The notes: generated by a model not told the origin, from the sequence alone. Numbered from the stretch's first letter, positions 7,460 through 60,830 are shown. The stretch: 64,000 bases of DNA from Candidatus Omnitrophota bacterium (GCA_016934335.1 JAFGTC010000267.1:10-64009), one strand, 5' to 3'. Translations and numbers: made by a program.

Positions 7460-8254
7460 ATGGCGGTTTTGAAATCCATCAATCTGAAAAAACAATACGG
7501 CTCGAAAACAGTCGTCAACGATGTCAGCGTCGCCGTCGCCAGCAGCGAAATTGTAGGACTGCTTGGACCCAATGGGGCGGGGAAAACGACCACCTTCGGC
7601 ATGATCATGGGGATCATCCGGCCGGATGTCGGGCGCATTGAACTCGACGGCATCGATATCACCCACCGCCCCTTATCGCGCCGCGCCCGCATGGGGATCG
7701 GTTATCTTTCGCAGGAGCCTTCCATCTTTCGGCGTTTGACGGTTTATCAAAATGTCATGGTAGTTTTGGAAAATATGCCGCTGAATGCGAGAGATCGAAA
7801 AGAATCCTGCCAGCGGTTATTGGATGAATCCGAACTGTCGCATTTGAGCCATCAAAAAGCGGAAACCCTTTCGGGCGGCGAAAAGAGGCGCTTGGAAATC
7901 TGCCGCGCGCTCGCCGCCCGCCCGCGCATCATTCTCTTGGACGAGCCGTTTTCCGGCGTCGATCCGATCGCCGTCAGTGAATTGCAGGAAATTATTTTGC
8001 AGATGAAAAAGCGACGCATCGGCGTTTTAATAACCGATCACAGCGTTCGCGAAACGCTCGAAGTAACCGACCGCGCCTACATCATGCACCAGGGCGTCAT
8101 TCTCACGCAGGGATCAGCCGCTCAATTGATCAACGACCCCATCGTTCGCCAAACCTATCTCGGGGAAAATTTTTACTTCAAAAAGACCAAAAAGAGCGAA
8201 TCTTCTTCAAAACGAAAAAAGAACGATGACGACACACTATTTAAACTGACATAA
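7460..8254 (+). CDS. lptB: LPS export ABC transporter ATP-binding protein LptB-like
   Basis: Walker A GPNGAGKTT, ABC signature LSGGEKRRLEICRALA, Walker B ILLDEPFSGVD. It carries an unusual Lys/Ser-rich C-terminal tail (KKTKKSESSSKRKKNDDD). Confidence 0.65.
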   Translation: MAVLKSINLKKQYGSKTVVNDVSVAVASSEIVGLLGPNGAGKTTTFGMIMGIIRPDVGRIELDGIDITHRPLSRRARMGIGYLSQEPSIFRRLTVYQNVMVVLENMPLNARDRKESCQRLLDESELSHLSHQKAETLSGGEKRRLEICRALAARPRIILLDEPFSGVDPIAVSELQEIILQMKKRRIGVLITDHSVRETLEVTDRAYIMHQGVILTQGSAAQLINDPIVRQTYLGENFYFKKTKKSESSSKRKKNDDDTLFKLT

Positions 8255-8302: not shown

Positions 8303-9664
8303 ATGAGTGATTTCACTACTTCGCAGTCTTTGGAAATTATTCTCGATTCGATTGCGGACGGCGTGTTTACCGTCGATCCCCAGTGGAGGATCACATCCTT
8401 CAATCGAGCGGCGGAATCCATTCTCGGCATTCCTCGCGAAGAGGCGGTGGGAGTGCCTTGCTGCGAAGTATTCCGCTCCAGCATCTGTGAAAGTCAGTGC
8501 GCTCTCAAAGAAACGCTCGATACGGGGAAATCGATCATCAACAAGACCATCTATGTGATCAATGTTATGGGCGAACGCATTCCGATCAGCATATCCACCG
8601 CGATCTTAAAGGATAAAGAAGGCCGCATGATCGGCGGCGTCGAAACATTCCGCGATTTGAGTCAGGTCGAGGAACTTCGTAAAGAACTTTCCCAAAAATA
8701 TTCGTTTTCCGACATCATCGGCCGGAGCGCCTCCATGCGGAAAATCTTCGATATTCTTCCCCAAATTGCCCAAAGCGACGCAACCGTTCTGCTGCTGGGC
8801 GAGAGCGGAACGGGAAAGGAACTGTTCGCGCGAGCCATCCATCAATTGTCTTCTCGCCATAAAAAAAATTTTGTCACCGTGAACTGCGGCGCTTTGCCCG
8901 ATACTCTCTTGGAATCCGAACTTTTCGGCTATATGGCGGGTGCTTTCACCGATGCCAAGCGCGATAAGCAGGGGCGTTTTTCATTGGCTCATCAAGGCAC
9001 AATGTTTCTGGATGAAATCGGCGACATCTCTCCCGCCATGCAGACGCGGCTGCTTCGCGTGCTTCAGGAAAAAACCATCGAGCCGCTCGGTTCATCCAAA
9101 ACCGTCCACGTCGACGTTCGCGTGATCGCAGCGACCAACAAGGATTTAAACCAGGAAGTGAAGGAAGGTAATTTTCGCGAGGATTTGTTCTATCGCATTA
9201 ACGTCATCCGCATCGTCATTCCCCCTCTGCGGGAGCGCAAAGAGGATCTTCCGCTTTTGATTCAGCATTTTATGTCGAAATATAATCGTTTGCACAACAA
9301 GAATATTTCCAGCGTCTCCGATTCGGTCCTGGCGGCGTTAATGAGTCATGGCTATCCGGGAAACGTGAGAGAATTGGAAAACATTCTCGAACACGCCGCC
9401 GTTTTATGCAGCGGCGGGATGATCGAAATGTCCCATCTGCCCTCTCCATTCAATGCGGAAGCATCATCCCATGCTGTCGAAGGAGGAAAAAGTTTAACAT
9501 TGAAGGAGTTGGAAGCGCTGCACATCAAGCGCTCCATCCAACAGCATCATGGAAATCGCACCGCCGCCGCCAAAGCCTTGGGCATCCATCCCAGCACCCT
9601 CTTCCGAAAAATCCACGCTCTCGGCATTGAACTGCCTGAACATGACGGCCGATTTAGAAAATAG
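8303..9664 (+). CDS. Sigma-54-dependent transcriptional activator (PAS - AAA+ - Fis-type HTH), no receiver domain
   Basis: N-terminal PAS (DGVFTVDPQWRITSFNRAAESILG) with a Cys cluster PCCEVFRSSICESQC. AAA+ Walker A GESGTGKE, the GAFTGA-like loop as GAFTDA, and an ESELFGY motif. C-terminal HTH AAKALGIHPSTLFRK. Confidence 0.85.
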   Translation: MSDFTTSQSLEIILDSIADGVFTVDPQWRITSFNRAAESILGIPREEAVGVPCCEVFRSSICESQCALKETLDTGKSIINKTIYVINVMGERIPISISTAILKDKEGRMIGGVETFRDLSQVEELRKELSQKYSFSDIIGRSASMRKIFDILPQIAQSDATVLLLGESGTGKELFARAIHQLSSRHKKNFVTVNCGALPDTLLESELFGYMAGAFTDAKRDKQGRFSLAHQGTMFLDEIGDISPAMQTRLLRVLQEKTIEPLGSSKTVHVDVRVIAATNKDLNQEVKEGNFREDLFYRINVIRIVIPPLRERKEDLPLLIQHFMSKYNRLHNKNISSVSDSVLAALMSHGYPGNVRELENILEHAAVLCSGGMIEMSHLPSPFNAEASSHAVEGGKSLTLKELEALHIKRSIQQHHGNRTAAAKALGIHPSTLFRKIHALGIELPEHDGRFRK

Positions 9665-9832
9665 TAGCATGGCGTTTTGCGATTTTATTGAATTGATACA
9701 ATAGCATTTTGCTATGATAATATCTATCTCCCGCCTAAAGTCATTATCTTTATCTCATTTTTAATGAACATGTTATGTGTTTATAATTTCAAATCCTTCT
9801 AATTGGTATGTTTCTTGATTGTCTATATAACC

Positions 9833-10231
9833 ATGAAAGTCGCTATCCCGATTTGGAACCATAGGATCTCTCCCGTTTTCGATTGCGCCCGAAAAATGAT
9901 CGTGGTGGACATCGAAGAGGGCGGAGAACGCCAGCGCACAGAATACAATCTGGATGAGCTCCTTTTTTTACAACGGGCCAGCTATTTGAAAAAATTGAAC
10001 ATCGACATTTTGATCTGCGGCGCCATATCCAGGCCGCTGGAAGAATTAATACAAACAAAAGGCATCAAGATTGTTTCATACCTTTGCGGTAATGTGGAGG
10101 AAATTTTGCAGGCTTTGTGCAATGACAGACTTTCTCAAGATCAATTTTTGATGCCCGGGTGCTGCGGCCGGAGGCGGTCTCGGTTTCGACATCGAGGATC
10201 GCGCTGCCGTAAGAAAGGAGCAACAGCATGA
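9833..10231 (+). CDS. NifX/NifB-C-terminal-like (dinitrogenase FeMo-cofactor-binding family fold) protein, Cys/Arg-rich C-terminal tail
   Basis: MKVAIPIWNHRISPVFDCARKMIVVD ... ILICGAISRPL is the family pattern. The tail reads GCCGRRRSRFRHRGSRCRKKG. The ORF opens with TTG at 9803; the ATG at 9833 is preferred. Confidence 0.6.
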   Translation: MKVAIPIWNHRISPVFDCARKMIVVDIEEGGERQRTEYNLDELLFLQRASYLKKLNIDILICGAISRPLEELIQTKGIKIVSYLCGNVEEILQALCNDRLSQDQFLMPGCCGRRRSRFRHRGSRCRKKGATA

Positions 10232-10590
10232 AAATCGCCGTCAGTTCGCAGGGCGAGACATTGCAAAGCCAAGTGGATCCCCGTTTTGGCCGGGCGCGCT
10301 ATTTTTTAGTAATCGATCCGGAAACGAAGGAATTTACCTGCCATGACAACGTCCAGAATTTAAACGCCGCTCAGGGGGCGGGCATTCAAGCCGCCCGCAA
10401 TGTGATCAACCTGGGCGTCGAGGGCGTCATCACGGGCAACCTGGGCCCTAAAGCGTTTGCGACCTTGAATGCCGGAAACATCGCCATGTATATCGGCGCC
10501 AAAGGAACTGTTCAAGATGCAATCGATCAACTTCAAGCCGGCCGACTACAGGCCGTGAGCCAGCCGAACGTAGAAGGTCATTGGGTGTAG
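10228..10590 (+). CDS. NifX/NafY-like dinitrogenase iron-molybdenum cofactor family protein
   Basis: MKIAVSSQGETLQSQVDPRFGRARYFLVIDPETKEF...GVEGVITGNLGPKAF. ATGA overlap with the upstream gene. Confidence 0.7.
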   Translation: MKIAVSSQGETLQSQVDPRFGRARYFLVIDPETKEFTCHDNVQNLNAAQGAGIQAARNVINLGVEGVITGNLGPKAFATLNAGNIAMYIGAKGTVQDAIDQLQAGRLQAVSQPNVEGHWV

Positions 10591-10596
10591 ATTTAT

Positions 10597-11475
10597 ATGA
10601 AGTCGTATTTGGAGTGTATTCCCTGTTTTGTTCGCCAGACGCTCGAATCCGTTTCTATGGTTTCCGAGGAGGAATCGGTTCGAGAAGAAGTGCTTCGAAG
10701 CGTTTTGCTTGATGTCAGCAGCATGGATCTGAGCGATCCGCCGCCGCTTATGGGGCAGCGCATTCATCGCTTGATTCGTGAAAAAACAAACATTCTTGAT
10801 CCCTACAGCGCCGTCAAGAAGCAATATAACCAAGCCGTCTTAGCGCGTTACGATCGGTTTCAATCGCAAATTCAAAACGCCGCCGATCCGCTTGAAACGG
10901 CGATTCGATTGGCCATCGCCGGCAACATTATCGATTGCGGCGCGTTTGCCGACCTCAATGAAGCCGCCGTGAAAAAATCGATCGAAAGCGCATTGAATGA
11001 ACCGCTGCTTTGGGATCGGAATGAATTTCGCAAGGCGGTCGACGACGCCGAATCCATTTTGTACCTGGCTGACAATGCGGGGGAAATAGTGTTCGATCGG
11101 CTGCTCATCGAGCAATTGCCCATGGAAAAAATTACGGTCGCCGTGCGCGGATATCCGATTCTCAACGACGTCACCCTTGCCGACGCGCAGGAAGTCGGAT
11201 TGATGGATATGGTCGACGTCATCGATAACGGCTCTGATGCGCCCGGTACGATTTTATCCGATTGCCGCGAAGATTTTGTCAAGCGATTTCATGAAAGCGA
11301 TTTGATATTCGCCAAAGGTCAAGGCAACTATGAAACTTTAAGCGACGCCGGCCGGGATATTTTCTTTTTACTGAAAGCGAAATGCCCCGTGATCGCCAGA
11401 GACATCGGCTGCAAAGTCGGGGCGTTGATATTGAAGAGAACCTTCGCTGCGGCGCCGGTCGCGGCGGAGATCTAA
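10597..11475 (+). CDS. DUF89 family protein (ARMT1-like metal-dependent phosphatase fold)
   Basis: N-terminus MKSYLECIPCFVRQTLE and overall length are typical of DUF89 proteins. Confidence 0.6.
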   Translation: MKSYLECIPCFVRQTLESVSMVSEEESVREEVLRSVLLDVSSMDLSDPPPLMGQRIHRLIREKTNILDPYSAVKKQYNQAVLARYDRFQSQIQNAADPLETAIRLAIAGNIIDCGAFADLNEAAVKKSIESALNEPLLWDRNEFRKAVDDAESILYLADNAGEIVFDRLLIEQLPMEKITVAVRGYPILNDVTLADAQEVGLMDMVDVIDNGSDAPGTILSDCREDFVKRFHESDLIFAKGQGNYETLSDAGRDIFFLLKAKCPVIARDIGCKVGALILKRTFAAAPVAAEI

Positions 11476-11537
11476 GAACGGCGTTCTGCGCCATAAATGC
11501 TTCATTGAGAACATAGGTATGAAAGGAGGTCTTTATC

Positions 11538-11924
11538 ATGCCTAGAGGTGATGGAACAGGCCCTGGAGGGCTGGGACCCATGACGGGACGCGCGGCGGGC
11601 TTCTGCGCCGGCTATTCAGTTCCAGGCTATATGAATCCCGGTTTCGGATTTGGCTTTGGATGGCGCGGGCGCGGCGGTGGACGAGGGCGGCGCAACCGTT
11701 TCTTTGCAACAGGATTGACCGGATGGCAGAGGAATGCTTATGCATGGCCCGCCTACGCTCCTCCCGCACCCGTCTATCCTCCCTTTCAGGGAACGACGCC
11801 TGTCAATCCACAGACTCGCGATCAAGAGATCGATGCGTTGAAAGGACAGGCCGAGTATTTTCAAGATGCGTTAGATGGAATCAATAAACGGATTGCCGAA
11901 TTAGAAAAACAATCCGACGCCTAA
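11538..11924 (+). CDS. DUF5320 family protein
   Basis: Characteristic N-terminus MPRGDGTGPGGLGPMTGRAAGFCAGY, a Gly/Arg-rich middle, and a C-terminal coiled coil (EIDALKGQAEYFQDALDGINKRIAELEKQ). Strong AAAGGAGG RBS. Confidence 0.6.
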   Translation: MPRGDGTGPGGLGPMTGRAAGFCAGYSVPGYMNPGFGFGFGWRGRGGGRGRRNRFFATGLTGWQRNAYAWPAYAPPAPVYPPFQGTTPVNPQTRDQEIDALKGQAEYFQDALDGINKRIAELEKQSDA

Positions 11925-11998
11925 CCTGACCGTTGTGCGCCGGAATGATTGTGATTCACATTGATTCCGGCGCGCCGTTTTATTTTGGAAGAAGGTGT

Positions 11999-12682
11999 AT
12001 GATGAAAATAGCTATTACTGCCAAAGAAGCCTCTTTGGATTCGAATGTGGATCCCCGTCTGGGACGCTGTATGCATATGGCTCTCATCGATCTATCGAAT
12101 GGGAGTCATGAGTTTATTGAGAATCCCAATGCGGGGGCGGCCAGCGGCGCCGGGATTCAAACGGCGCGCCTGCTGGCGGAAAAAGGCGTTCAAGTTGTGC
12201 TGACGGGAAACTGCGGGCCCAATGCGCATGAAACGCTGCGCGCGGCGGGCATCGACGTGATTGTCGGCGTCAGCGGACCGATTCAAGCCGTGATCGAGCA
12301 GTTTCAAGCCAATTCTTTTACGCCCGCTCAAAGCCCCAATGTCGACGCTCATGCCGGAATGCAGCAAACCGCTGAGATGGATTCAGCCAATGAAACGAGC
12401 AATCCGACTGGAGGCATGGGGCAAGGACAAGGAATGATTGGAGGACAGGATATGAATCAAGGTCAAGGCATGGGCCAAGGCGGCGGCATGGGCCGGGGCG
12501 GCGGTATGGGCCAAGGCGGCGGCATGGGCCAAGGCGGCGGTATGGGTCAAGGCGGCGGCATGGGCCGAGGCGGCGGCATGGGCCGAGGCGGCGGTATGGG
12601 CCGGGGCGGCGGCAGGGGTCGAGGCGGCGGCGGGGGTCGAGGCGGCGGCGGGGGTCGAGGCGGCGGCGGCCGCGGTCGATGA
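11999..12682 (+). CDS. NifX-like domain protein with C-terminal (MGQGGG)n / RGG low-complexity tail
   Basis: MMKIAITAKEASLDSNVDPRLGRCMHMALIDL...GVQVVLTGNCGPNA. Then about 11 repeats of MG(Q/R)GGG followed by GRGGGGG repeats. GGAAGAAGG RBS upstream. Confidence 0.6.
   Translation: MMKIAITAKEASLDSNVDPRLGRCMHMALIDLSNGSHEFIENPNAGAASGAGIQTARLLAEKGVQVVLTGNCGPNAHETLRAAGIDVIVGVSGPIQAVIEQFQANSFTPAQSPNVDAHAGMQQTAEMDSANETSNPTGGMGQGQGMIGGQDMNQGQGMGQGGGMGRGGGMGQGGGMGQGGGMGQGGGMGRGGGMGRGGGMGRGGGRGRGGGGGRGGGGGRGGGGRGR
12470..12667 (+). repeat. Coding tandem repeat, 18-nt unit (atgggccaaggcggcggc) x ~11, degenerating into gggggtcgaggcggcggc units
   Basis: Direct inspection: consecutive 18-nt units with 0-3 substitutions encode the MGQGGG/MGRGGG/GGRGRGG tail of the NifX-like protein. 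Confidence 0.85.
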
Positions 12683-12759
12683 CAATAATTGAACGGGGCG
12701 ACAGAATCAATCGATCTGGCGAAAAGTTTTGCTGCAGGCTTACATGGTGATTTATATCT

Positions 12760-13626
12760 ATGAGAATTGCAATTGCTAGCGGAAAAGGCGGTACAGGAAA
12801 AACCACCATTTCCTCCAATTTAGCTTATACAGAAGCAAAAAAGGGGAAAAAGGTCGTCTATGTAGACTGCGATGTTGAAGAGCCCAACGGACATTTATTT
12901 TTGAAGCCGGAAATTGTGTCGACTCGCCCCGTAGGGATCATGGTTCCCTCCGTTGATCAAGATTTATGCAATCATTGCGGATTATGCGGTCAAATCTGCG
13001 AATACAGCGCGATCGTGTGTTTGGGATCGGAGACGCTTGTGTTTCCCGAGATGTGTCATTCGTGTGGAGGATGCTGGCTGGTGTGCCCTGAGAACGCCAT
13101 TTCGCAAGTTATGAAGGAAATGGGACGGGTTGAGATCGGCCGTGCGGGATCGATAGATTTCGTGCAGGGCGTCTTGAATATCGGCGAGGCGATGAGTCCG
13201 CCCGTCATCCGGGCGGTTAAGAAAGCCATGCCGGAGTCTGAGATTCAAATACTCGATGCGCCGCCCGGGACTTCATGCCCGGTGATCGAAACTATTCGAG
13301 ACTGCGATTATTTGATTTTAGTCACCGAGCCCACGCCGTTTGGTTTAAACGATTTAATCTTGGCGGTCGACATGGTGCGCACCTTACATTATTCGTTCGG
13401 CGTCATCATCAATCGGGCGGATTTGGGATATTCGGATGTGCAGGATTATTGCCGAAGGCAGCACATTCCCATCCTGGCGGAATTTCCCGACGATCGGCGA
13501 GCGGCCGAAGCGTATTCGAAAGGATATTTAGTCAGCGAAGTCATCCCCGAATTCGCCGGATTATTAGACGGCTTGGTCGACCGAATCCAATTCGAACTTG
13601 AGAGCGATAAGGTAGGCGCATCATGA
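12760..13626 (+). CDS. MinD/ParA-family P-loop ATPase with 2x[4Fe-4S] ferredoxin insert
   Basis: Deviant Walker A ASGKGGTGKTT. Two Cys clusters CNHCGLCGQICEYSAI and CHSCGGCWLVCPENAI. A second nucleotide-binding region DAPPGTSCP. Confidence 0.75.
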   Translation: MRIAIASGKGGTGKTTISSNLAYTEAKKGKKVVYVDCDVEEPNGHLFLKPEIVSTRPVGIMVPSVDQDLCNHCGLCGQICEYSAIVCLGSETLVFPEMCHSCGGCWLVCPENAISQVMKEMGRVEIGRAGSIDFVQGVLNIGEAMSPPVIRAVKKAMPESEIQILDAPPGTSCPVIETIRDCDYLILVTEPTPFGLNDLILAVDMVRTLHYSFGVIINRADLGYSDVQDYCRRQHIPILAEFPDDRRAAEAYSKGYLVSEVIPEFAGLLDGLVDRIQFELESDKVGAS

Positions 13627-14561
13627 AAGAAATGGTCATCATCAGCGGAAAAGGCGGAACCGGCAAGACCTCGATTGTCGCCTCATTTGCGGCTTTGGCG
13701 AAAAACTCGGTGCTGGCCGACTGCGATGTAGACGCCGCCGATCTGCATCTCATCCTCGAGCCGGACATCTATTGGAAAGAGAAATTTTCCGGCGGCTCCC
13801 GTGCTCGGATCCTGCCGGGGCATTGCACAGCGTGCGGGAAATGCGAGGAAATATGCCGCTTCGACGCCATTTACTTCGACGGGCCGGGTAACGGCGTGCA
13901 GGAAAAAACCTTTCGCATCGATCCCATCACCTGCGAAGGATGCGGCGTGTGCGCCTGGTTTTGCGCCGAGAAAGCCATCGAATTCGCTCCCGCCGTGAAT
14001 GGCGAATGGTATAAATCGGAAACGCGCTTCGGCCCCATGGTTCACGCGCGCTTAGGGGCGGGGGAGGAAAATTCCGGGAAACTGGTCACTCTGGTTCGAA
14101 AAGAAGCTGGAAAGATCGCCGAAGAAAAAAATATAGACCTGTTGATAGTCGACGGTTCGCCGGGCATCGGCTGCCCCGTCATTGCGTCGATCACCGGCGC
14201 CGATATGGTTGTGATTGTGACGGAGCCGACGTTGAGCGGACTGCATGACCTGAAGCGAGTCGCCAAACTCACTCGACAATTCGACATTCCTACGCTGGCG
14301 TGCATCAACAAGTGGGATTTGAATCCCGAACTCGCCTCCGCGATCGAAAGCGAAGCGCGTCAACAAGAATTAGGATATGCCGGGCGCGTTCGGTATGACA
14401 AAGCCGCCACTCTCTCGCAAATCGAGAAAAAATCGATCGTTGAATATCAGTCCGGTGGAGCGGCGGAGGATATACAAGCAGTCTGGTCAAAAGTGAGATT
14501 GGAATTAGAGAAGTTAGGTGCGTCTGTTTCTAATTCCGTTTTCTCAATTGGAAAATCCTAA
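13623..14561 (+). CDS. MinD/ParA-family P-loop ATPase with 2x[4Fe-4S] ferredoxin insert (paralog)
   Basis: ISGKGGTGKTS. Cys clusters CTACGKCEEICRFDAI and CEGCGVCAWFCAEKAI. Motif DGSPGIGCPV. ATGA overlap with the previous gene. Confidence 0.75.
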   Translation: MKEMVIISGKGGTGKTSIVASFAALAKNSVLADCDVDAADLHLILEPDIYWKEKFSGGSRARILPGHCTACGKCEEICRFDAIYFDGPGNGVQEKTFRIDPITCEGCGVCAWFCAEKAIEFAPAVNGEWYKSETRFGPMVHARLGAGEENSGKLVTLVRKEAGKIAEEKNIDLLIVDGSPGIGCPVIASITGADMVVIVTEPTLSGLHDLKRVAKLTRQFDIPTLACINKWDLNPELASAIESEARQQELGYAGRVRYDKAATLSQIEKKSIVEYQSGGAAEDIQAVWSKVRLELEKLGASVSNSVFSIGKS

Positions 14562-14624
14562 TTCAAAAAATGCGTCAATTCATTTTGTCGCTTTATGTCA
14601 AAGAAAGAACAGGAGACAATAAAC

Positions 14625-14960
14625 ATGAAAATTGCCATTCCCGTGGCCGACGGCCGGTTGTGCGCTCATTTCGGGCATTGCGAAGAATTCGCTGTGATGG
14701 ATGTTGACGATTCGAAAACGATTATAGGTCAGACACGGCATACGCCGCCCATGCACGAACCGGGCGTCTTGCCGCGCTGGCTGCATGAAATGGGAGTCAA
14801 TGTCATTATCGCCGGGGGCATGGGGCAGCGAGCGCAGGCCATCTTCGCCCAGAATGACATCGAAGTCGTGGTCGGCGCGCCCACGGGCGATCCGGAAGAA
14901 ATCGTCCAGAATTATCTGCAAGGGATGATCCAATGCGGCGATAATTTATGCGACCATTAA
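14625..14960 (+). CDS. NifX/NifB-C-terminal-like dinitrogenase FeMo-cofactor family protein
   Basis: MKIAIPVADGRLCAHFGHCEEFAVMDVD...NVIIAGGMGQRA. AGGAGA RBS 8 nt upstream of the ATG at 14625; the longer ORF starting at 14595 is unlikely. Confidence 0.65.
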   Translation: MKIAIPVADGRLCAHFGHCEEFAVMDVDDSKTIIGQTRHTPPMHEPGVLPRWLHEMGVNVIIAGGMGQRAQAIFAQNDIEVVVGAPTGDPEEIVQNYLQGMIQCGDNLCDH

Positions 14961-23998: not shown

Positions 23999-24034
23999 AA
24001 AACCGGTTGAAAGATTTCTCTCTCAACCGGTTGT
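23999..24034. terminator. Inverted repeat AACCGGTTGA-N12-TCAACCGGTT between convergent genes
   Basis: 10-bp perfect stem read directly; it lies between the sulfatase end (23953) and the 24050..24820 minus-strand gene end. Confidence 0.45.
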
Positions 24035-24049
24035 TGGATTAGAGACGCA

Positions 24050-24820
24050 TTACCAGGTTATATAACTCAAGTTGGGATGATAGCGTAGATTATGCGTTTC
24101 CATGCCGCGCAGGTAAGGAGCGCATTCTTTATATAATGCATAGATTTCTTCGCCGATTTTTTCATCCCGTTTTTCGATCTCTTTGGATATGGATGCTTCG
24201 TCTTCGCCGGCGATGGCGACGAGCAGTGCGGGAAGATCGTTTCCGCTGATCACTTCATAGATTTGGTGTCCTAAGGCGATGTCATTTTCTCTGCATAGAT
24301 TATTTAACTTTTGGGAAATTTCTTTGACTTGATACATCTTTCCCGGAACGATTTTGTAGGTGATGACTTTACAGAAAAACGGCTTTGATTTGTCGAATTC
24401 AAACGCTGGATTTTCAGGTTGATAACTCAAGTTGGGAAGATATTCTGCAAACATTCTAGATCGTTGACTCACGCAAGCCATATGTTGGGATACCAAATCT
24501 TTAACTTCTTCTTTGCCGACTCGTTCTTGAAATTCAGTCCATTTTTCATGCATCGCGTCAAGTTGGGAAAAATTTTCGAAAATGTAGACCCATTCAACCT
24601 CGAAGTCTTCCGAATAACAAAGATAGGGGGCCGGGTAATTGTGCTCTAAAGAACCCTTGGCCATTTCTTCTGAAATCTGCATGTATTGGCCCATCATCGC
24701 CGGTTGAACGACATCCCTATCGATCAAAATGATATGCTTCTCTTGAGCAATAGCGCCCATTGCGAAGAGCATGATCGCCAATCCCGTCATAAGTCCGCGC
24801 ATCCACTGTTTTTTAACCAT
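24050..24820 (-). CDS. Secreted hypothetical protein with internal duplication
   Basis: N-terminal signal peptide (LMTGLAIMLFAMGAIAQE). Repeated PNLSY-containing segments correspond to three caagttggga DNA repeats. Confidence 0.4.
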   Translation of the reverse strand: MVKKQWMRGLMTGLAIMLFAMGAIAQEKHIILIDRDVVQPAMMGQYMQISEEMAKGSLEHNYPAPYLCYSEDFEVEWVYIFENFSQLDAMHEKWTEFQERVGKEEVKDLVSQHMACVSQRSRMFAEYLPNLSYQPENPAFEFDKSKPFFCKVITYKIVPGKMYQVKEISQKLNNLCRENDIALGHQIYEVISGNDLPALLVAIAGEDEASISKEIEKRDEKIGEEIYALYKECAPYLRGMETHNLRYHPNLSYITW

Positions 24821-25053
24821 TTTTTTCTCCTATGAGATGATTTTGTTTCGGAGAAGAAGAGTCATTGGTGGGAGGGATATTATGCTTATGCGAAGGTATT
24901 TTGTCAACAAAAAATTTTGGTAAATCATTCAATATATAAAATTACGGTATTTATTTGTAATAACAATCGGAATGATTACTCAAGTAAAGTTTCTAAATTT
25001 TAATTTACAATTAAACATAAAAGCTTCCCTTTAGATAAATAATTTTGCAATTT

Positions 25054-25079
25054 TAGAATAGAATCGATTCTTATTCTAT
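25054..25079. promoter_or_regulatory. Near-perfect palindrome TAGAATAGAATCGATTCTTATTCTA in AT-rich intergenic region
   Basis: Read directly: 10-bp perfect core GAATCGATTC with extended arms carrying one indel. About 270 bp upstream of the LuxR-type regulator gene. Confidence 0.3.
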
Positions 25080-25349
25080 CATTTTTGTTTTATTCTTTTT
25101 CTCATTATTCAATAAATCTATGATATTCAATATGTTATAAAAATGGCATGCTATATGCTAAGTTTGTAGGCATGTTGTAACGTTTTGTGAAAATCGATTG
25201 ATTTCTTTGGAGTCAATTGAAAGAATTCATTCTTCGTTTCGGGTGTTGAGGGCAGGTAAATTGAGGATTTAGAACAGAAGGCAATGGAATTTTTGTATTG
25301 AAATTCCTGATTATTCTCTTGAACAGTTCGAAGCGGAGGCGCAGGAAAA

Positions 25350-26015
25350 ATGACGGCCAAAATTCTGATAGTCGATGGCAATCCTCTTATTCGATTTGGA
25401 TTGCGCAAGTTGCTGGAACATGAACAGGATATCATTCTTTGCGAGGATGCGGCAAACAGCAATGATGCTTTGGAGCAAATCGAAAGATTCAAGCCTGATC
25501 TGATGATTGTCGACATCGAAATCGAGACATCATGGGGGATTGATTTTATTCGATACGTAAAGGATGAATACAGTCAAATACGCATCATTGTTTTTTCGTT
25601 TCTGGATGAAACTATTTATGCGGAGCGCGTGCTGCGAGCGAAGGCCAATGGATTTTTGTCGAAAAATGAAAATTGCGAAAAAATTTTACTGGGAATTCGA
25701 TCGGTTCTTCATGGTGGTTTATGTTTGAGTTCATCGGTTCAGAAGCAAATTGTGGATAAACTCAGTTATGAAAACAAAAGGGAGTCTCCGATCGATTCGC
25801 TGTCCAATCGTGAATTGCAAATCCTTGAGCTGCTATCGAAAGGTCTGAAGCCTTCTCAAGTGGCGGAGTCGCTCCATTTGAGTTCAAAAACCGTGGAGAA
25901 TTATCGTACGAATTTGCGGTTTAAGTTGAAGTTGAACAGTGCGGCGGAATTATATCATTACGCCATTGAATGGAAGAAATCATTGCGAGCGGAAGAAATG
26001 GCGTCGATTAATTGA
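25350..26015 (+). CDS. Response regulator, NarL/FixJ (LuxR-type HTH) family, orphan
   Basis: Receiver domain (ILIVDGNPLIRFGL...DLMIVDIEI) followed by a LuxR HTH (SNRELQILELLSKGLKPSQVAESLHLSSKTVENYRTNL). No histidine kinase nearby. The acidic pocket is atypical, DG rather than DD. Confidence 0.75.
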   Translation: MTAKILIVDGNPLIRFGLRKLLEHEQDIILCEDAANSNDALEQIERFKPDLMIVDIEIETSWGIDFIRYVKDEYSQIRIIVFSFLDETIYAERVLRAKANGFLSKNENCEKILLGIRSVLHGGLCLSSSVQKQIVDKLSYENKRESPIDSLSNRELQILELLSKGLKPSQVAESLHLSSKTVENYRTNLRFKLKLNSAAELYHYAIEWKKSLRAEEMASIN

Positions 26016-43240: not shown

Positions 43241-43861
43241 TTATTTTTCTTTTGCATCGATGGGCGTTCCTCTTGAGACAAAACTGACGCTGCGCGTTCC
43301 AATGACGCCGACCATTACCGCTTCCATAAGTGGAGGAGCAGCATCTTCTTTGGACATCCACTCAACAAGGAAGTTAGCGCCGGAGCCCCCCATTGTATCA
43401 TGTTGTTTTACCAGGAAATCGATGGTTTGCAGAGGATTGAGTTTGATAGGAAATTCGATGAAGTTTTGTATTTCCTTTCCCGCTGTATCATAATATCGAA
43501 CCGATTGGATATAGATTGGCTTTTCGGCGTCGATATTTCGAATGCTCAAGGTGACTTCCAGTAAATAAGGCTTCCCGCCGTCAAAATACACATGCGAATA
43601 ACTGGGTATGTACATTCGGCGTATATCCGACGAGGATAATTGGAGATCGTGAAGATCGATTTTGAGGGATTCCAGATCGGGCGGTGCGTATTGACGTGGA
43701 GCGGCATACGTCATGGATTCTTCGATATGGGCGATGCGGCTGCTGATCAGATGCGTATAAAGCAACAAAAACAGCAACAAAACAACGAGTATCATTACGG
43801 CGATATGAACGCCGTATTCAAATACAAACAAAACCCAATCAGGATAATTTGTTTTCTTCAT
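43241..43861 (-). CDS. DUF3124-like protein with N-terminal transmembrane anchor
   Basis: YIPSYSHVYFDGGKPYLLEVTLSIRNID...SVRYYDTAGKEI...GGSGANFLVEW matches my recollection of the DUF3124 consensus; single N-terminal transmembrane helix. Confidence 0.4.
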   Translation of the reverse strand: MKKTNYPDWVLFVFEYGVHIAVMILVVLLLFLLLYTHLISSRIAHIEESMTYAAPRQYAPPDLESLKIDLHDLQLSSSDIRRMYIPSYSHVYFDGGKPYLLEVTLSIRNIDAEKPIYIQSVRYYDTAGKEIQNFIEFPIKLNPLQTIDFLVKQHDTMGGSGANFLVEWMSKEDAAPPLMEAVMVGVIGTRSVSFVSRGTPIDAKEK

Positions 43862-43948
43862 AGATTTATACCGCTGATAGTGAATGGTATATAGTATTTT
43901 TTGATTTTTCTATCCATGATACGCCTGTTTCATCGTTTTGGTGGAAAT

Positions 43949-44872
43949 TTAAAAAAACAATTGGAAGAGTGATCCCGCCAAAATCGACCAGGCGAAGCTC
44001 GATGCACAAAATGCTATCGTGACGTTTGTTCCCATAGTCAGTTGCATGGCGGCTAGCGTGGGGATTTTTGTGGCAGGACCGACCAGGAAAAAGGCAAGAG
44101 CAGCCCCGGGAGACATGCCCAAATTCATCAAAATTTGGATCAGCGGGATCGTTCCCCCGCCGCAGGCGTATAATGGAATTCCCAGAAGAGAGCCGAAAAG
44201 AATCCCGAAGCGCTGCTGCCGGCCGACGGTCATCGTAATCCAACGCATGGGGATTAACTCTTTTACCAGGGCTGCGATCAATATTCCAAGAAGAACAAAT
44301 TTGACGACGAACCAACCCATATGACAAAAAGATTTCCACCAGATTTGGAGGAACGAATGCGTCGAATCGGTTTTTTCAAGGGAGGGCAATACTTCGGTCG
44401 GATGAAAGTTTACGCTCATTCGATCCGGGAGGAAGAATCGCTGAGCCAGCAAACCGCCGACAATCCCGAACAGGAAGGCGGAAAGGGCTCGGGCCAGCGC
44501 CATCGGCCACCCAAAAACGCTCCATGTCATGAAAAATAAGGTGGGGTTCATCAAGGGGGTGGAGCATAAGAAGGCAAAAACCGCTCCCGGAGCCAAGCCG
44601 CGCATAAGGAGCGCAGCGGAAATGGGAATCGCTAAATAGGAGCAAAAAGGTGAGATTACACCGGCTAGAGCCATTCCGGCGATGACAAAAAATCCATGAC
44701 CTGCGGCGTGATGCTGAAGAAAATTCTGTACCGGCCGCCAAGCGACTAGAAATGAGGAGATGATTAAGCCGAGGATCAATCCCGGGAGGATGGAAAGAGC
44801 AAGCCTTTCCATCTCCAAAATGACTCGGAAGGTGTATGTATCTTGAAATAGAATCCAGAATTCGAATAGCAA
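43949..44872 (-). CDS. Predicted permease (DUF318/ArsP-like two-repeat permease)
   Basis: About 8 transmembrane helices with an internal repeat. Motifs VISPFCSY and YACGGGTIPLIQILMNLGMSPGAALAF. Confidence 0.5.
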   Translation of the reverse strand: MLFEFWILFQDTYTFRVILEMERLALSILPGLILGLIISSFLVAWRPVQNFLQHHAAGHGFFVIAGMALAGVISPFCSYLAIPISAALLMRGLAPGAVFAFLCSTPLMNPTLFFMTWSVFGWPMALARALSAFLFGIVGGLLAQRFFLPDRMSVNFHPTEVLPSLEKTDSTHSFLQIWWKSFCHMGWFVVKFVLLGILIAALVKELIPMRWITMTVGRQQRFGILFGSLLGIPLYACGGGTIPLIQILMNLGMSPGAALAFFLVGPATKIPTLAAMQLTMGTNVTIAFCASSFAWSILAGSLFQLFF

Positions 44873-57931: not shown

Positions 57932-59647
57932 ATGGAAAATCAAGAAGATAAAACGGCGGTTGCCAATAGTGTCGAGCCAAACGATGGTTCTCCGACCCCG
58001 AATCAATATTCGCTTGAGACCGAGAGCGCTCAACGTCTTCAGGATGTGGATTACGCTACGGTGGAATTGGGAGCGGAGGATATGCTGGAATCGTTGGCCG
58101 AACAGGCCAATATGGAGATCATCCAGCTGCGTCAAAAACACTTATTGCCCGATGTCGTAAACTTAATGCCGGAGAAGATGGCCCGGCGTTATAATGCAAT
58201 TGCGATTGATCGAGATGAAGACTCGATAACGATTGCCATTTCCGATCCCTTCAATCTGGATGCTCAAGACGCGATCAGTTTTTGTTTTCCCGGTTATCAA
58301 TTGAAATGGGTTCTTTCGCGGGAAGACGAGATTACCATAGCGATTGAGCGGTATTATCGCGGCCAGCAAGCCATGGTTGAAGACATGTTGAATGAGATCA
58401 GCGAAGATCAGGCTTACGGCAAAGGCGATGAAAAAACGCTGAAGGAGATGTTGACGGATGACATCTCGTTAGACGATGAAGGGCCGATTTTACGTCTGGT
58501 GGACTTGGTCTTTGAGGAAGCGGTGCGTACGCGAGCTTCCGATATTCATTTCGAACCGTTTGAAGACAAATTTATCATTCGCTTCCGCATTGACGGCGTT
58601 CTCCATGAGATTCAATCCCCTAGCAAAAAGTTGCAAGGTCCGATTTTGTCTCGCCTGAAGTTGATGAGCGGCATGGACCTTTCCGAAAAACGAGTTCCCC
58701 AGGACGGCCGCATCCAGAGGGTGATTTTAGGCCGTCATTTCGACTTCCGCGTCTCGGCGCTTCCCGCTTTGCATGGCGAGAGCATCGTCACCCGTCTGTT
58801 GGAGCAGTCAGGCGTTCTGCTCGGTTTGGAGCAGATTGGGTTTTTAGAAGACAACGTTGAAAAGTTCAAGGATATGATTAAGCGTCCCAACGGCATCATT
58901 TTGATGACTGGTCCGACGGGATCCGGGAAGACGACTACGCTTTATTCCGCTCTCAATGTTATTAATAATGTCGATACGAAGATAGTCACCGTCGAGAACC
59001 CGGTGGAGTATCAGATTGAGGGGATCAATCAAGTTCAGATCAACGATGATATTGGATTGACATTTTCGTTGGCGCTTCGCTCCATTCTTCGCCAGGCGCC
59101 GAACGTTATTCTCGTCGGTGAAATCCGCGACTTGGAAACAGCGGAAATCGCGATCAGCGCAGCGATGACCGGGCATTTGGTCTTTTCGACGCTGCACACG
59201 AACGATGCTCCCAGCGCGAATACGCGTCTGGTGGAAATGGGGGTGAAACCCTTCCTGGTGGCCTCGGCGATCCAGGCTATCATCGCTCAGCGCCTCGTGC
59301 GAACGATTTGTAAGGAATGTAAAGAGCAGTATGAGCCTGATCCCCTGGTAATCAAAGATCTTGGATTCGATCCGGATGAATACAAAGGACAGGCGTTTTA
59401 CCGGGGCAAAGGCTGCGAGAACTGCAACTATACGGGGTACAAGGGTCGAACCGCTATTCACGAGGTGATGGAAAACTCGGATGAAATACGAGATTTGGTA
59501 TTGAATAACGCCACGTCCGACGCAATTCGCTCTTTGGCGCGAAAACAGGGCATGAGAACGCTTCGTGAGGATGGATGGCTGAAAGTTCTACGCGGTCAAA
59601 CCACCATGGTTGAAGTCGCTCGCATCACGGCGGGAGATGAAATTTAA
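57932..59647 (+). CDS. pilB: Type II secretion / type IV pilus assembly ATPase (GspE/PilB family)
   Basis: T2SSE_N domain; Walker A GPTGSGKTTTLYS; Asp/His boxes; tetracysteine CKECKEQ...CENCNYTGYKGR. Confidence 0.8.
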   Translation: MENQEDKTAVANSVEPNDGSPTPNQYSLETESAQRLQDVDYATVELGAEDMLESLAEQANMEIIQLRQKHLLPDVVNLMPEKMARRYNAIAIDRDEDSITIAISDPFNLDAQDAISFCFPGYQLKWVLSREDEITIAIERYYRGQQAMVEDMLNEISEDQAYGKGDEKTLKEMLTDDISLDDEGPILRLVDLVFEEAVRTRASDIHFEPFEDKFIIRFRIDGVLHEIQSPSKKLQGPILSRLKLMSGMDLSEKRVPQDGRIQRVILGRHFDFRVSALPALHGESIVTRLLEQSGVLLGLEQIGFLEDNVEKFKDMIKRPNGIILMTGPTGSGKTTTLYSALNVINNVDTKIVTVENPVEYQIEGINQVQINDDIGLTFSLALRSILRQAPNVILVGEIRDLETAEIAISAAMTGHLVFSTLHTNDAPSANTRLVEMGVKPFLVASAIQAIIAQRLVRTICKECKEQYEPDPLVIKDLGFDPDEYKGQAFYRGKGCENCNYTGYKGRTAIHEVMENSDEIRDLVLNNATSDAIRSLARKQGMRTLREDGWLKVLRGQTTMVEVARITAGDEI

Positions 59648-59697
59648 TTTTAGTTAGTTATTGTAAAAATTGAAAGAAATAGAAAGGTATAATCATC

Positions 59698-60768: not shown

Positions 60769-60830
60769 CGTTAGATCATGAGTTTTCTTATTTGGATTAC
60801 ATACACTTTCATTCCGGCGAGGAATAATCA

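Follow-up and report, generated by a model that had tools for sequence, protein, structure and literature searches.

An orp (ORange Protein complex) gene cluster with an OrpR-type activator in an uncultured bacterium labelled Candidatus Omnitrophica

Positions 8303-14960 of the DNA analysed here, a stretch of 64,000 nucleotides referred to as the window, are identified by comparison as an orp (ORange Protein complex) gene cluster together with its cognate OrpR-type activator, in an uncultured bacterium labelled Candidatus Omnitrophica. This identity is based on orthology to a comparison locus (L089), on OrpR signatures in the regulator, on matches to MrpORP and to the ORP structure, and on synteny. 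The initial annotation had presented the region as an uncharacterised system, but an orp/ORP-complex cluster has already been described and partly studied in Desulfovibrio. It had also stated that none of the families has an established function in this arrangement. This is correct for the physiological role of the complex but not for OrpR, Orp3-Orp4-Orp8 and MrpORP, which have been studied experimentally (PMC8359166, PMC6345978). Its reading of metal-sulfur-cluster-binding proteins and Fe-S-containing P-loop ATPases behind a sigma-54 enhancer-binding protein was right. The explanation as a whole, i.e., orp identity, regulation by OrpR and sigma-54, a complex centred on the ATPases, and Fe-S or thiometallate handling, is considered probable.

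Gene content and relation to known proteins

The cluster comprises the following genes:

8303-9664, + strand: OrpR-type sigma-54 enhancer-binding protein, 453 aa, with PAS, AAA+ and Fis-type HTH domains and a predicted [4Fe-4S] site
9833-10231, + strand: gene 2, Orp7-type PF02579 protein, 132 aa (PF02579 8.6e-08)
10228-10590, + strand: gene 3, Orp8/orange protein orthologue, 120 aa (PF02579)
10597-11475, + strand: gene 4, DUF89/ARMT1-like metal-dependent phosphatase-fold protein, 292 aa (PF01937 3e-66)
11538-11924, + strand: gene 5, DUF5320 protein, 128 aa (PF17253 5e-23)
11999-12682, + strand: gene 6, second ORP-like PF02579 protein of the IssA/IssX type, 227 aa, with a 115-aa Gly/Arg tail
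12760-13626, + strand: gene 7, Orp4 orthologue, MinD-type deviant Walker A ATPase, 288 aa, with a 2x[4Fe-4S] ferredoxin insert
13623-14561, + strand: gene 8, Orp3 orthologue, paralogous MinD-ferredoxin ATPase, 312 aa
14595-14960, + strand: gene 9, stand-alone Di-Nase domain of Orp9/MrpORP, 121 aa (PF02579; NF041136 match)

Most of the gene-level description in the initial annotation was borne out. The + strand genes are tightly packed, with two ATGA overlaps and a largest gap of 77 nt. Pfam recovers the PAS-AAA+-HTH activator upstream of the operon (PAS, Sigma54_activat at 3e-72 and HTH_8), the four small NifX-like proteins as PF02579 domains in genes 2, 3, 6 and 9, and the DUF89 and DUF5320 proteins with the values listed. 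Two points need correction. The operon 9833-14960 holds eight genes, nine being reached only if the regulator is counted. The two MinD/ParA-type ATPases do have a CbiA/ParA P-loop and two CxxCxxCxxxC motifs each, but the residue that follows is E, P, R or A and not P or E alone.

The comparison locus L089 is a metagenome contig of the type found in Desulfovibrio vulgaris Hildenborough (DvH), with promoter sequences nearly identical to those published for the orp genes of DvH. The regulator is 50% identical to the L089 OrpR over 441 aa (E 5e-160). Identities to the other DvH-type proteins are 49% over the full length for gene 3 and Orp8 (E 8e-36), 48% for gene 8 and Orp3 (E 2e-90), 40% for gene 7 and Orp4 (E 5e-68), 52% for gene 9 and residues 375-487 of Orp9 (E 1e-34), and 22% for gene 2 and Orp7 (E 4e-11). 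OrpR, Orp7, Orp8, Orp4, Orp3 and the Orp9 Di-Nase domain of the DvH cluster (orp3-4-5, orpR, orp7-8-9) all have orthologues here and, as with Orp5, a Gly/Arg-rich MPxGDGTGP protein is encoded ahead of the two ATPase genes. The regulatory layout is also shared, with an activator adjoining its target, upstream palindromes and a -24/-12 element. However, the genes form two divergent operons in DvH and one co-directional operon here, Orp9 is represented without its Mrp/NBP35 P-loop half, and the DUF89 gene and the second, tailed ORP-like gene are extras outside the studied DvH cluster. The host is a deltaproteobacterium in the case of DvH and carries an Omnitrophica label here.

Genes 3 and 6 encode single PF02579 domains that match the orange protein of Megalodesulfovibrio (Desulfovibrio) gigas (PDB 2WFB) over their full length (1.6e-15 and 5.6e-16, respectively). 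As summarised in PMC6345978 (refs 21 and 22 therein), the D. gigas protein carries a Mo/Cu sulfide cluster, [S2MoS2CuS2MoS2]3-; it does not have the 115-aa tail of gene 6. Gene 6 is 34% identical to Orp8 and also matches MTH1175 of the IssA clade (3e-15). Its tail contains 58 Gly and 10 Arg and has a pI of 11.8. Gly/Arg-tailed PF02579 proteins have been described as IssA/IssX type, and IssA binds thioferrate by its PF02579 domain and cationic tail (PMC5524996). Gene 6 shares this domain and a disordered, glycine-rich, cationic tail with IssA of Pyrococcus furiosus and the 'IssX' clade (PMC5524996). Aromatic residues are abundant in the IssA tail, though, but absent from the (GMGxGGG)n/RGG tail of gene 6, which also has few prolines, and gene 6 sits in an orp context. 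Similar (GMGRG)n tails recur in its relatives. The Cys/Arg tail of gene 2, reported initially along with the Gly-rich RGG tail of gene 6, is equally real: its C-terminal MPGCCGRRR motif is conserved and is accompanied by a cationic tail, and LICGAIS, CG and MPGCCGRRRR are conserved in the alignment of the Orp7-type family.

Gene 9 matches positions 258-363 of MrpORP (NCBIfam NF041136) at 3.7e-43. Its CAHFGHCE, TPPMHEPGVLP and terminal CDH are the three Di-Nase motifs named in PMC6345978 (CxHFGHCE, TPPxHxPGxxP and CDH), which it shares with MrpORP (Orp9), an Mrp/NBP35 Fe-S carrier. The P-loop/CxxC carrier domain of MrpORP is absent from the window. In relatives, the Mrp carrier is either a separate gene (in locus L005, 395 bits to NF041136) or fused, the latter in 4 of 30 fully flanked loci. 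MrpORP loads clusters onto Orp3-Orp4-Orp8 (PMC6345978). Among the ORP components, the Mrp P-loop domain is the only one with a demonstrated activity, namely cluster transfer.

The ATPases encoded by genes 7 and 8 are 31% identical to each other (44% positives). With the MinD/ParA cell-division and partition ATPases they share the deviant Walker A motif GKGGTGKT and the P-loop fold, but in both the Walker A region is followed by an insert of about 60 residues that contains two [4Fe-4S] motifs. The ATPases score 68.6 bits, far below the MinD family cut-off of 201.75 bits, and minC and minE partners are absent from the cluster. Orp3-Orp4-Orp8 co-purify as an Fe-S complex (PMC6345978).

Gene 4, which is accessory and absent from the DvH cluster, matches PF01937 over its full length, as do the DUF89/ARMT1 damage-control phosphatases, and its nearest structures are the archaeal 2FFJ and 2G8L (1e-36 to 1e-38), although its 174 bits remain below the NCBIfam equivalog cut-off of 440. 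Gene 5 is the positional counterpart of Orp5. It has an MPRGDGTGP...CAG head, a cationic Gly/Arg/aromatic middle and a C-terminal coiled coil; DvH-type Orp5 is Gly/Arg-rich, begins with MPYGDGTGP and is not recognised by the Pfam DUF5320 model. DUF5320 is fused to an ORP-like PF02579 domain in seven relatives, with a 2x[4Fe-4S] domain added in one of them, and these fusions tie both families together functionally.

Regulator and promoter region

OrpR has been characterised as a redox-sensing [4Fe-4S] activator with the orp operons as its sole targets (PMC8359166). In the regulator described here, the PAS domain covers residues 13-123 (Pfam). The regulator's own Cys cluster, as annotated initially, is present (C53, C54, C62 and C66); C53-x-E55-x6-C62-x3-C66 aligns with C52/D54/C61/C65 of DvH and is invariant in five aligned homologues (cf. 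PMC8359166), and the resulting Fe-S signature C-x-[D/E]-x6-C-x3-C is common to DvH-type OrpR. The GAFTDA loop is intact and matches that of DVU2106 (PMC4641369).

Between the regulator and gene 2, the following candidate elements were found:

9670-9684, + strand: candidate half-conserved activator box TGGCGTTTTGCGATT, with TTTTGCG as in the DvH OrpR site GGGCGTGTTTTGCGCC, a weak resemblance only
9693-9721, + strand: sigma-70-like match TTGATA-17-GATAAT (10/12 positions), overlapping the palindrome
9701-9715, + strand: perfect 6+3+6 palindrome ATAGCA-TTT-TGCTAT, candidate upstream activating sequence, lying some 100 nt ahead of the -24/-12-like element
9763-9775, + strand: IHF-like site AATGAACATGTTA, one mismatch to WATCARNNNNTTR, between palindrome and promoter, a consensus match only
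9804-9819, + strand: degenerate sigma-54 -24/-12 element TGGTAT-GTTTC-TTGAT, with GA instead of GC at -12, starting 29 nt before the ATG at 9833

Sigma-54 control of the operon, as claimed initially, is suggested by comparison only: a degenerate -24/-12 element occupies the promoter position of the relatives, but an exact TGG-N9-TGC is absent from the 168-nt intergenic region. In relatives, TGG-N9-TGC occurs upstream of 20 of 34 Orp7-type genes, in 12 of these 20 between -28 and -36, and four relatives have the canonical TGGCAC-N5-TTGC exactly at -29. Scored with a matrix built from 24 promoters of relatives, the element reaches 7.4 bits, which ranks 34th among 127,970 window positions and lies below every training site (minimum 10.5). 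Transcription is predicted to start near 9830, leaving a leader of about 3 nt; that of the DvH-type locus is about 25 nt long and includes a Shine-Dalgarno sequence. The palindrome differs in sequence from the DvH box, and the -12 element is degenerate in comparison with that locus. The full DvH OrpR motif was not found within 3 mismatches. The palindrome centre GCATTTT also occurs in DvH OrpR sites, and in relatives the corresponding place is taken by TTGCA-N3/4-TGCAA palindromes, mostly as a pair. The orp promoters of DvH require IHF (PMC3897727). The window contains no rpoN gene.

The operon might also be independent of sigma-54, with the sigma-70-like promoter at 9693-9721 or read-through accounting for its transcription and the regulator acting elsewhere or as a repressor. 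The missing C at -12, the score below that of all relatives, the 10/12 sigma-70 match across the palindrome and the lack of a predicted terminator after the regulator gene fit such a scheme. Its probability is nevertheless estimated to be low, as the -24/-12-like element lies exactly at the canonical promoter position of the relatives, four of which likewise vary at the -12 C (reading TGT), the AAA+ domain of the activator is intact with GAFTDA kept, and sigma-70-type matches in the region are no commoner than in shuffled sequence.

Regulation by OrpR and sigma-54 can be pictured from the work in DvH and from the relatives. When the redox potential is low, the activator would have a [4Fe-4S] cluster in its PAS domain. 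The activator would then bind the palindrome(s) some 100-130 nt upstream of the operon and remodel sigma-54 RNA polymerase at 9804-9819, and oxidation would turn expression off.

Conservation across genomes

The same gene set is found in hundreds of genomes from many phyla. Its conservation was confirmed by a gene-neighbourhood check of 80 fetched genome loci, covering many phyla, with partner frequencies counted in the 30 loci that have full flanks. A second MinD-ferredoxin gene is present in 100% of these 30, the Di-Nase type in 97%, DUF5320 in 83% (25/30), the ORP type in 80%, Mrp in 70%, the Orp7 type in 53%, DUF89 in 40% (12/30) and the OrpR type in 37%. At least one PF02579 protein lies near the ATPase pair in 71 of the 80 loci. 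In most loci with the activator, the Orp7-type gene is the first one after it. As only about 30% of related loci carry the tailed ORP-like paralogue, this protein is not the core of the system. A radical-SAM gene is common in relatives, its weak best matches, to a tungsten-cofactor maturase and MoaA, being far below the family cut-offs; the window has none among the 40 scanned ORFs, which are those outside 8303-14960 that lie at their own locus and reach 150 aa.

Possible function of the complex

We infer a complex of all eight products with a heterodimer of the two MinD-type ATPases, orthologous to Orp4 and Orp3, at its centre; each ATPase would carry two ferredoxin-type [4Fe-4S] clusters. 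The PF02579 partners of this pair would be Orp8, the Orp7-type protein with its Cys-rich tail, the Orp9 Di-Nase domain and the extra, IssA-like ORP-like protein with its polycationic tail. The function of this complex is the least certain part of the explanation.

A first alternative is iron-sulfur storage as in IssA, whereby the tailed ORP-like protein and the DUF5320 protein nucleate thioferrate-type particles that the ATPase pair mobilises. It draws on the strongly cationic tail of gene 6 on its PF02579 domain, on the MTH1175 match, on the cationic middle of the DUF5320 protein and its PF02579 fusions in relatives, and on IssA itself, which stores thioferrate by such a domain and tail and for which an uncharacterised mesophilic 'IssX' clade has been noted (PMC5524996). 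We regard it as rather unlikely, given that the tailed paralogue is infrequent in related loci and that the ligand of the core ORP protein in D. gigas is a Mo/Cu cluster and not thioferrate.

The only published hypothesis on the function of the ORP complex, in DvH, is cell division and not cluster trafficking. MinD-like Orp3 and Orp4 would then form a division or positioning device at the pole or septum, with the small proteins as accessories. The ATPases are indeed of the MinD/ParA family, loss of OrpR in DvH causes morphological defects, MrpORP localises to one pole, and a C-terminal amphipathic helix has been reported for Orp3 and Orp4 (PMC8359166, PMC6345978). However, positioning explains neither the eight-Cys ferredoxin insert of each ATPase nor the frequent PF02579 neighbours, and the ATPases are also accompanied by Mrp Fe-S carriers, by cationic tails of the IssA kind and, among relatives, by radical-SAM genes. 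As the DvH phenotype could moreover be indirect, this role is judged unlikely.

Still less probable is the handling of thiomolybdate, thiotungstate or copper in sulfidic habitats, for detoxification or for Mo/W supply to pterin enzymes. The Orp8 orthologue does match the D. gigas protein for which a Mo/Cu cluster is cited in PMC6345978, and the radical-SAM gene of the relatives is weakly closest to cofactor maturases. Yet those matches are too poor for a family assignment, the Mo/Cu cluster has been seen in the protein of one species only, the other characterised components bind Fe-S clusters, and no Mo/W transporter or pterin gene occurs among the 40 window ORFs scanned (150 aa or longer, outside 8303-14960).

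Nitrogenase cofactor maturation by genuine NifX, NafY or NifB-C factors serving nif genes elsewhere in the genome, to which the four PF02579 domains could point as members of the same fold family that binds complex metal-sulfur clusters non-covalently, is effectively refuted, as the cluster proteins belong to another clade with other partners (best matches ORP, MTH1175 and MrpORP), the same cluster occurs in non-diazotroph lineages, no nif family was seen among the gene families present in at least five related loci (most of them not annotated individually), and no nifHDK, nifEN or nifB was found among the 40 scanned ORFs of at least 150 aa outside 8303-14960 in the window, so that the initial separation of the module from nitrogen fixation stands.

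In the favoured reading, Fe-S or thiometallate handling, the small PF02579 proteins would hold preformed anionic metal-sulfide species, either non-covalently or via few ligands, and cationic scaffolds would be supplied by the Gly/Arg tail and by the DUF5320 protein. Under sulfidic, strictly anoxic conditions, the ATPase pair may load these Fe-S or thiometallate species, hold them or pass them on, at the expense of ATP and low-potential electrons.

Gene content and identity of the cluster

The cluster at 8303-14960 is recognisable by its sequence as a homologue of the orp (ORange Protein complex) system and lies outside nitrogen fixation. Fievet et al. 2011 is reportedly the founding paper of this system; as the cluster is a homologue of a system described in 2011, it opens no new category. 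The initial annotation had presented the module as an unrecognised system, which is contradicted by an NCBIfam MrpORP match and by BLASTP against a locus of the Desulfovibrio vulgaris Hildenborough (DvH) type. Its pointer to metallocluster handling went in the right direction.

Genes of the cluster (coordinates, strand, assignment)
8303-9664, +: gene 1, regulator of 453 aa with PAS, Sigma54_activat, AAA_lid and HTH_8 (Pfam)
9833-10231, +: gene 2, Orp7-type
10228-10590, +: gene 3, Orp8 orthologue
10597-11475, +: gene 4, DUF89
11538-11924, +: gene 5, DUF5320
11999-12682, +: gene 6, tailed ORP-like
12760-13626, +: gene 7, Orp4 orthologue
13623-14561, +: gene 8, Orp3 orthologue
14595-14960, +: gene 9, Di-Nase

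Every domain that had been named for the regulator and the operon ORFs is borne out by Pfam. In the operon, PF02579 (the ORP/NifX/Di-Nase domain family) is present in four proteins and a CbiA/ParA P-loop in two, each with two 4Fe-4S ferredoxin motifs, while gene 4 matches PF01937 (DUF89; 3e-66) and gene 5 matches DUF5320 (5e-23). The tight packing that was described also holds, with two ATGA overlaps and a largest gap of at most 77 nt, but the nine-gene operon comprises eight genes and reaches nine only when the regulator is counted. That the PF02579 proteins are genuine NifX/NafY nitrogenase cofactor carriers is rejected, and nitrogen fixation was rightly excluded at the outset, as there is no NifX/NafY NCBIfam match and no nifEN, nifB or nifHDK in the window. 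Among the window's other ORFs of at least 150 aa that occupy a locus of their own, no nitrogenase, NifB, Mrp or RpoN gene is found. A paper on the Mo source of M. maripaludis mentions only canonical NifX.

The flanking genes are all unrelated to the cluster: a UDP-glucose dehydrogenase, a methyltransferase and an ABC ATPase upstream, and a GHMP kinase and an HI0933-type flavoprotein on the opposite strand downstream. The ABC-transporter ATPase gene (7460-8254, PF00005) directly precedes the activator gene on the same strand, 48 nt apart. In proteobacteria, rpoN is often found downstream of the ABC ATPase gene lptB; here, the next gene encodes an enhancer-binding protein, and the window has no rpoN. 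Elsewhere in the window, the stretches 57932-62684 and 63110-63940 (- strand) encode three T2SSE-type secretion ATPases in a row together with a protein that contains the hydrazine-synthase alpha middle domain (PF18582, 3.7e-25), and a DUF3124 protein adjoins an ArsP_1-type permease at 43241-44872 (- strand). L007, the related locus closest to the Desulfovibrio gigas orange protein (ORP), likewise has a DUF3124 gene at a distance of a few kb from its orp core. An exact-sequence look-up of the window's Orp4 orthologue gave one 1.1-kb Logan contig with no further gene context.

In DvH, the divergent operons orp5-orp4-orp3 and orp7-orp8-orp9 lie on either side of orpR (PMC8359166, PMC6345978, PMC3897727). 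OrpR is a PAS-AAA+-HTH sigma-54 activator, the redox-sensitive [4Fe-4S] cluster of its PAS domain requiring C52, C61 and C65, with D/E54 conserved (PMC8359166). The paralogous ATPases Orp3 and Orp4 have two [4Fe-4S] motifs each, and the orange protein itself is Orp8. Orp9 combines an Mrp/NBP35 domain with a PF02579 domain termed 'Di-Nase' and passes Fe-S clusters on to Orp3/Orp4 (PMC6345978).

The first clue to the identity of the cluster was the match of gene 9 to the C-terminal part (model positions 258-363) of the NCBIfam equivalog MrpORP (NF041136; 3.7e-43). A reference locus was reached by scanning metagenome contigs with 25 nt taken from the published figure of the orp2 promoter; the single match is a 9.5-kb contig (L089). 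In L089, both promoters and the OrpR boxes read nearly as published, and its OrpR cysteines are at exactly 52, 61 and 65. The published 65-nt orp1 promoter string has no match in L089 within 2 mismatches; read directly, this promoter shows a few differences, due to another strain or to PDF transcription errors, and L089 is therefore called DvH-type and not DvH. In a homologue search with the D. gigas ORP, DvH is absent among the 120 metagenomic matches listed; two loci from this search, L006 and L007, have the core only, without OrpR.

BLASTP against L089 pairs the regulator with OrpR (50% identity over 441 aa, 5e-160), gene 3 with Orp8 (49%, full length, 8e-36), gene 7 with Orp4 (40%, 5e-68), gene 8 with Orp3 (48%, 2e-90), gene 9 with residues 375-487 of Orp9 (52%, 1e-34) and gene 2 with Orp7 (22%, 4e-11). 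Gene 6 matches Orp8 as well (34%, 1e-10), which makes it a paralogue. From this comparison, the window appears to hold the two DvH operons merged into one. Compared to DvH, the Mrp half of Orp9 is missing, and DUF89 and the tailed ORP-like paralogue have been gained.

The individual proteins agree with this assignment to different extents. The regulator has C53-x-E55-x6-C62-x3-C66, the spacing of DvH OrpR at nearly the same positions and invariant in the alignment, together with an unusual GAFTDA loop that is listed for DVU2106 in the DvH regulome paper (PMC4641369). Against the ORP structure of D. gigas (2WFB), gene 3 has a match at 1.6e-15 and gene 6 one at 5.6e-16. In the Orp7-type family, the alignment shows conserved LICGAIS, CG and MPGCCGRRRR motifs, whose four cysteines could be candidate cluster ligands. 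Genes 7 and 8 are paralogues (31% identical, 44% similar), each with two CxxCxxCxxxC motifs. Their assignment as MinD septum-site ATPases is rejected, since they score 68.6 and 47.8 bits against a TIGR01969 cut-off of 201.75, and no minC or minE partners are present in the neighbourhood.

Gene 9 has all three Di-Nase motifs given in PMC6345978, i.e., CAHFGHCE, TPPMHEPGVLP and a terminal CDH. It corresponds to the Di-Nase half of the Orp9/MrpORP architecture only, and an Mrp-type gene is absent from the 64-kb window; the Mrp half may be encoded elsewhere in the genome. In the related locus L005, an Mrp gene matching MrpORP positions 1-261 (395 bits) is followed by a separate Di-Nase gene, which indicates that MrpORP is often split, the window keeping the second half only. 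Gene 4 is covered by PF01937 over residues 6-277 of 292 (224 bits), thus a full-length ARMT1-like domain, and stays below the NCBIfam equivalog cut-off; its nearest structures are 2FFJ and 2G8L. A literature search found no link between DUF89 and orp or PF02579 genes. Likewise, for the bacterial ORP complex after 2021 it gave nothing beyond the OrpR paper, the matches being mostly eukaryotic oxysterol-binding ORPs.

The region upstream of the operon

In the intergenic region 9665-9832, neither an exact TGG-N9-TGC nor a sigma-54 consensus with 2 mismatches is found. A -24/-12-like site, TGGTATGTTTCTTGAT (TGGTAT-N5-TTGAT), was recognised only after comparison with the promoters of relatives; it starts at 9804, exactly -29 from the ATG of gene 2. 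Among the relatives, TGG-N9-TGC is present upstream of 20 of 34 Orp7-type genes, in 12 of these 20 at 28-36 nt before the ATG and in four of those 12 at exactly -29, and four further relatives have TGG-N9-TGT at the same position. With a weight matrix built from 24 relatives' sigma-54 sites, the window site scores 7.4 bits and ranks 34 of 127,970 window positions, the weakest training site having 10.5 bits. Estimated from this rank, the probability that chance alone would place a score this high at or very near -29 (a few positions either way) is about 0.003. Because of the positional homology with the relatives' promoters, sigma-54 control is the best reading of the predicted promoter, weakened by the missing -12 cytosine.

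In the relatives, TTGCA-N3/4-TGCAA palindromes additionally occur 100-170 nt upstream, singly or in pairs. In the window, 9701-9715 forms a perfect palindrome, ATAGCATTTTGCTAT (ATAGCA-TTT-TGCTAT), and a TTTTGCG-containing box lies 32 nt further upstream; the two DvH boxes are spaced similarly. An IHF-like site lies between the palindrome and the -24/-12-like element, and a sigma-70-like match overlaps the palindrome. The DvH OrpR box GGGCGYRTTTTGCGCCC is absent near the operon at up to 3 mismatches, with three chance-level matches elsewhere in the window, and the individual DvH OrpR sites have no match in the intergenic region at up to 6 mismatches.

Where the TGG lies 28-36 nt before the start codon, as in these 12 of the 20 relatives with a canonical promoter, the predicted 5' leader is about 3-10 nt long, without room for a Shine–Dalgarno sequence. 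Such short leaders are predicted 5' of the Orp7-type gene in L005, L010, L012, L038 and other relatives as well as in the window (9804-9833), whereas the leader of the DvH-type locus is about 25 nt long and contains GGAGG. It would be unusual for leaderless-like sigma-54 transcripts to be conserved across phyla. The best match to the matrix in the whole window is TGGCATGCTATATGCT at 25144-25159 (+ strand; 16.7 bits). It lies in a low-GC stretch (24001-26000, GC 0.39), and a response-regulator/LuxR-type gene (25350-26015) follows about 190 nt downstream.

Partner genes, tails and fusions in relatives

One genome per species was scanned with an alignment of Orp4-type proteins as query. At least 581 stretches were confirmed, and the best 80 loci were used. 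These best 80 belong to Planctomycetota, Verrucomicrobiota, Omnitrophota, NC10, Acidobacteriota, Bacillota, Desulfobacterota, Ignavibacteria, Spirochaetes and others. The ORFs called in them were searched with the window proteins and four further seeds, and partner frequencies were taken from the 30 loci with full flanks.

Partners within 7 kb of Orp4-type genes (share of the 30 fully flanked loci)
Second ATPase: 100%
Di-Nase type: 97%
DUF5320: 83%
ORP type: 80%
Mrp: 70% (fused to PF02579 in 13%)
Orp7 type: 53%
Zn-ribbon protein: 43%
DUF89: 40%
OrpR type: 37%
DUF134: 37%
Tailed ORP-like: 30%

The gene-neighbourhood check that had been proposed finds the same partners recurring around Orp4-type genes in many groups, and eight related loci have a gene set identical to that of the window. 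OrpR is seemingly restricted to delta-Proteobacteria according to the OrpR paper (PMC8359166). OrpR-type activators with the Cys signature lie beside orp clusters in at least seven non-deltaproteobacterial lineages, with GAFTDA in all but two. They are found in L005, L010, L013, L015, L016, L019, L021, L036, L038, L079, L085 and other loci, on MAGs labelled Planctomycetota, Hydrogenedentota, Acidobacteriota, NC10 and Ignavibacteriales.

Related orp loci also contain genes that are absent from the window. An MBL-fold hydrolase gene is present in 28 of 86 and an unclassified radical-SAM gene in 25 of 86, the latter sometimes between the two ATPase genes and with a tungsten-cofactor maturase and MoaA as weak best matches; a hotdog thioesterase (15 of 86) and a TrmO-like protein (14 of 86) are less frequent. 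Examples of such extra genes are L004 13079-13927 and 15050-16015, and L035 11004-12059. L002 and L003 are two near-identical reduced orp clusters at different positions of one 2.56-Mb contig, each combining the two ATPases with an aspartate-decarboxylase-like ORF and with two ORP-like genes, one of them tailed; a DDE transposase gene adjoins one of the copies.

The DUF5320 proteins have a conserved MPxGDxTGP...CAG head, a cationic middle rich in Gly, Arg and aromatic residues, and a coiled coil. Gene 5 and the DvH-type Orp5 are both Gly/Arg-rich, share an MPxGDGTGP start (MPYGDGTGP in Orp5) and precede the two ATPase genes. There is no BLAST match between gene 5 and Orp5 of L089, and the Pfam DUF5320 model does not match the DvH-type Orp5 even at E = 1, so that Orp5 and DUF5320 are equated tentatively, by their position, N-terminal nonapeptide and composition.

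In gene 6 (PF02579, 3e-23; MTH1175 match, 3e-15), the 115-aa tail includes 58 Gly and 10 Arg, and its pI is 11.8. Similar (GMGRG)n tails recur in many relatives, on the ORP-like gene just 5' of the ATPase genes. In seven relatives, the tail of the ORP-like protein ends in a coiled coil and scores for DUF5320 above the Pfam gathering threshold.

PF02579-(GMGRG)n-DUF5320 fusions in related loci
L083 9349-9951
L010 8947-9642
L087 6238-6822
L023 2267-2854
L022 4646-5284 (- strand)
L080 5178-5726
L026 864-1664

These fusions are a domain-fusion link between the PF02579 and DUF5320 families, which are encoded by separate genes in the window. In the L026 protein, a 2x[4Fe-4S] ferredoxin domain is added after DUF5320. 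In L007, the gene immediately 5' of the one for the orange protein specifies a 112-aa (GQGR)n low-complexity cationic protein (9414-9752), a further Gly/Arg-rich partner without a Pfam family.

The tails and the DUF5320 proteins recall the chemistry of Pyrococcus furiosus IssA, in which a PF02579 domain together with a cationic Gly-rich tail binds anionic thioferrate; 'IssX' is an uncharacterised mesophilic clade (PMC5524996). Gene 6 resembles IssA in having a PF02579 domain of the IssA-clade type and a cationic Gly-rich C-terminal tail. However, its tail contains no W, F or Y, whereas IssA has a tail rich in Trp, Tyr and Phe and forms Fe/S nanoparticles.

Predicted function

In Desulfovibrio, OrpR is an Fe-S redox switch required for orp transcription (PMC8359166), Orp3, Orp4 and Orp8 co-purify and bear Fe-S chromophores, MrpORP passes clusters on to these proteins, and the orange protein is able to bind a cluster of Mo/Cu sulfide (PMC6345978 and references therein). 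By analogy, an OrpR-like Fe-S redox switch would drive the single eight-gene operon in the window and shut off its expression when the redox potential rises. The operon's products would form an ATPase-ferredoxin heterodimer decorated with PF02579 proteins and would handle anionic metal-sulfur species that are already formed, the cationic tail and DUF5320 serving as putative scaffolds. The published alternative is a role of the ORP complex in cell division. The partner associations (DUF5320, DUF89, IssA-like tails, MrpORP and, in relatives, MBL-fold and radical-SAM genes) point towards the handling of preformed metal-sulfur species rather than towards cell division.

A more specific and rather unlikely proposal is that the extended orp clusters encode a bacterial redox-gated store of anionic metal sulfides (thioferrate/thiometallates). 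The PF02579 domains would then nucleate an inorganic polymer, the Gly/Arg tails and the DUF5320 coiled-coil proteins would condense it into particles, and the Fe-S-bearing MinD-type ATPase pair would load or mobilise it. If true, this would give a concrete role to the long-studied, function-less ORP complex, and DUF5320 would be the scaffold protein of a metal-sulfide store.

Altogether, the value of the cluster is comparative. The orp core and an OrpR-type activator with the Fe-S signature extend well beyond the Deltaproteobacteria, and DUF5320 is a near-constant orp partner that is sometimes fused to the orange-protein domain. Around the core lies a variable shell of DUF89, IssA-like tails and split or fused MrpORP, with MBL-fold and radical-SAM genes in relatives. 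The wide spread of OrpR, DUF5320 as a core partner, the split MrpORP and the very short predicted leaders are modestly useful by-products, and the gene associations narrow the hypotheses on the function of the ORP complex.
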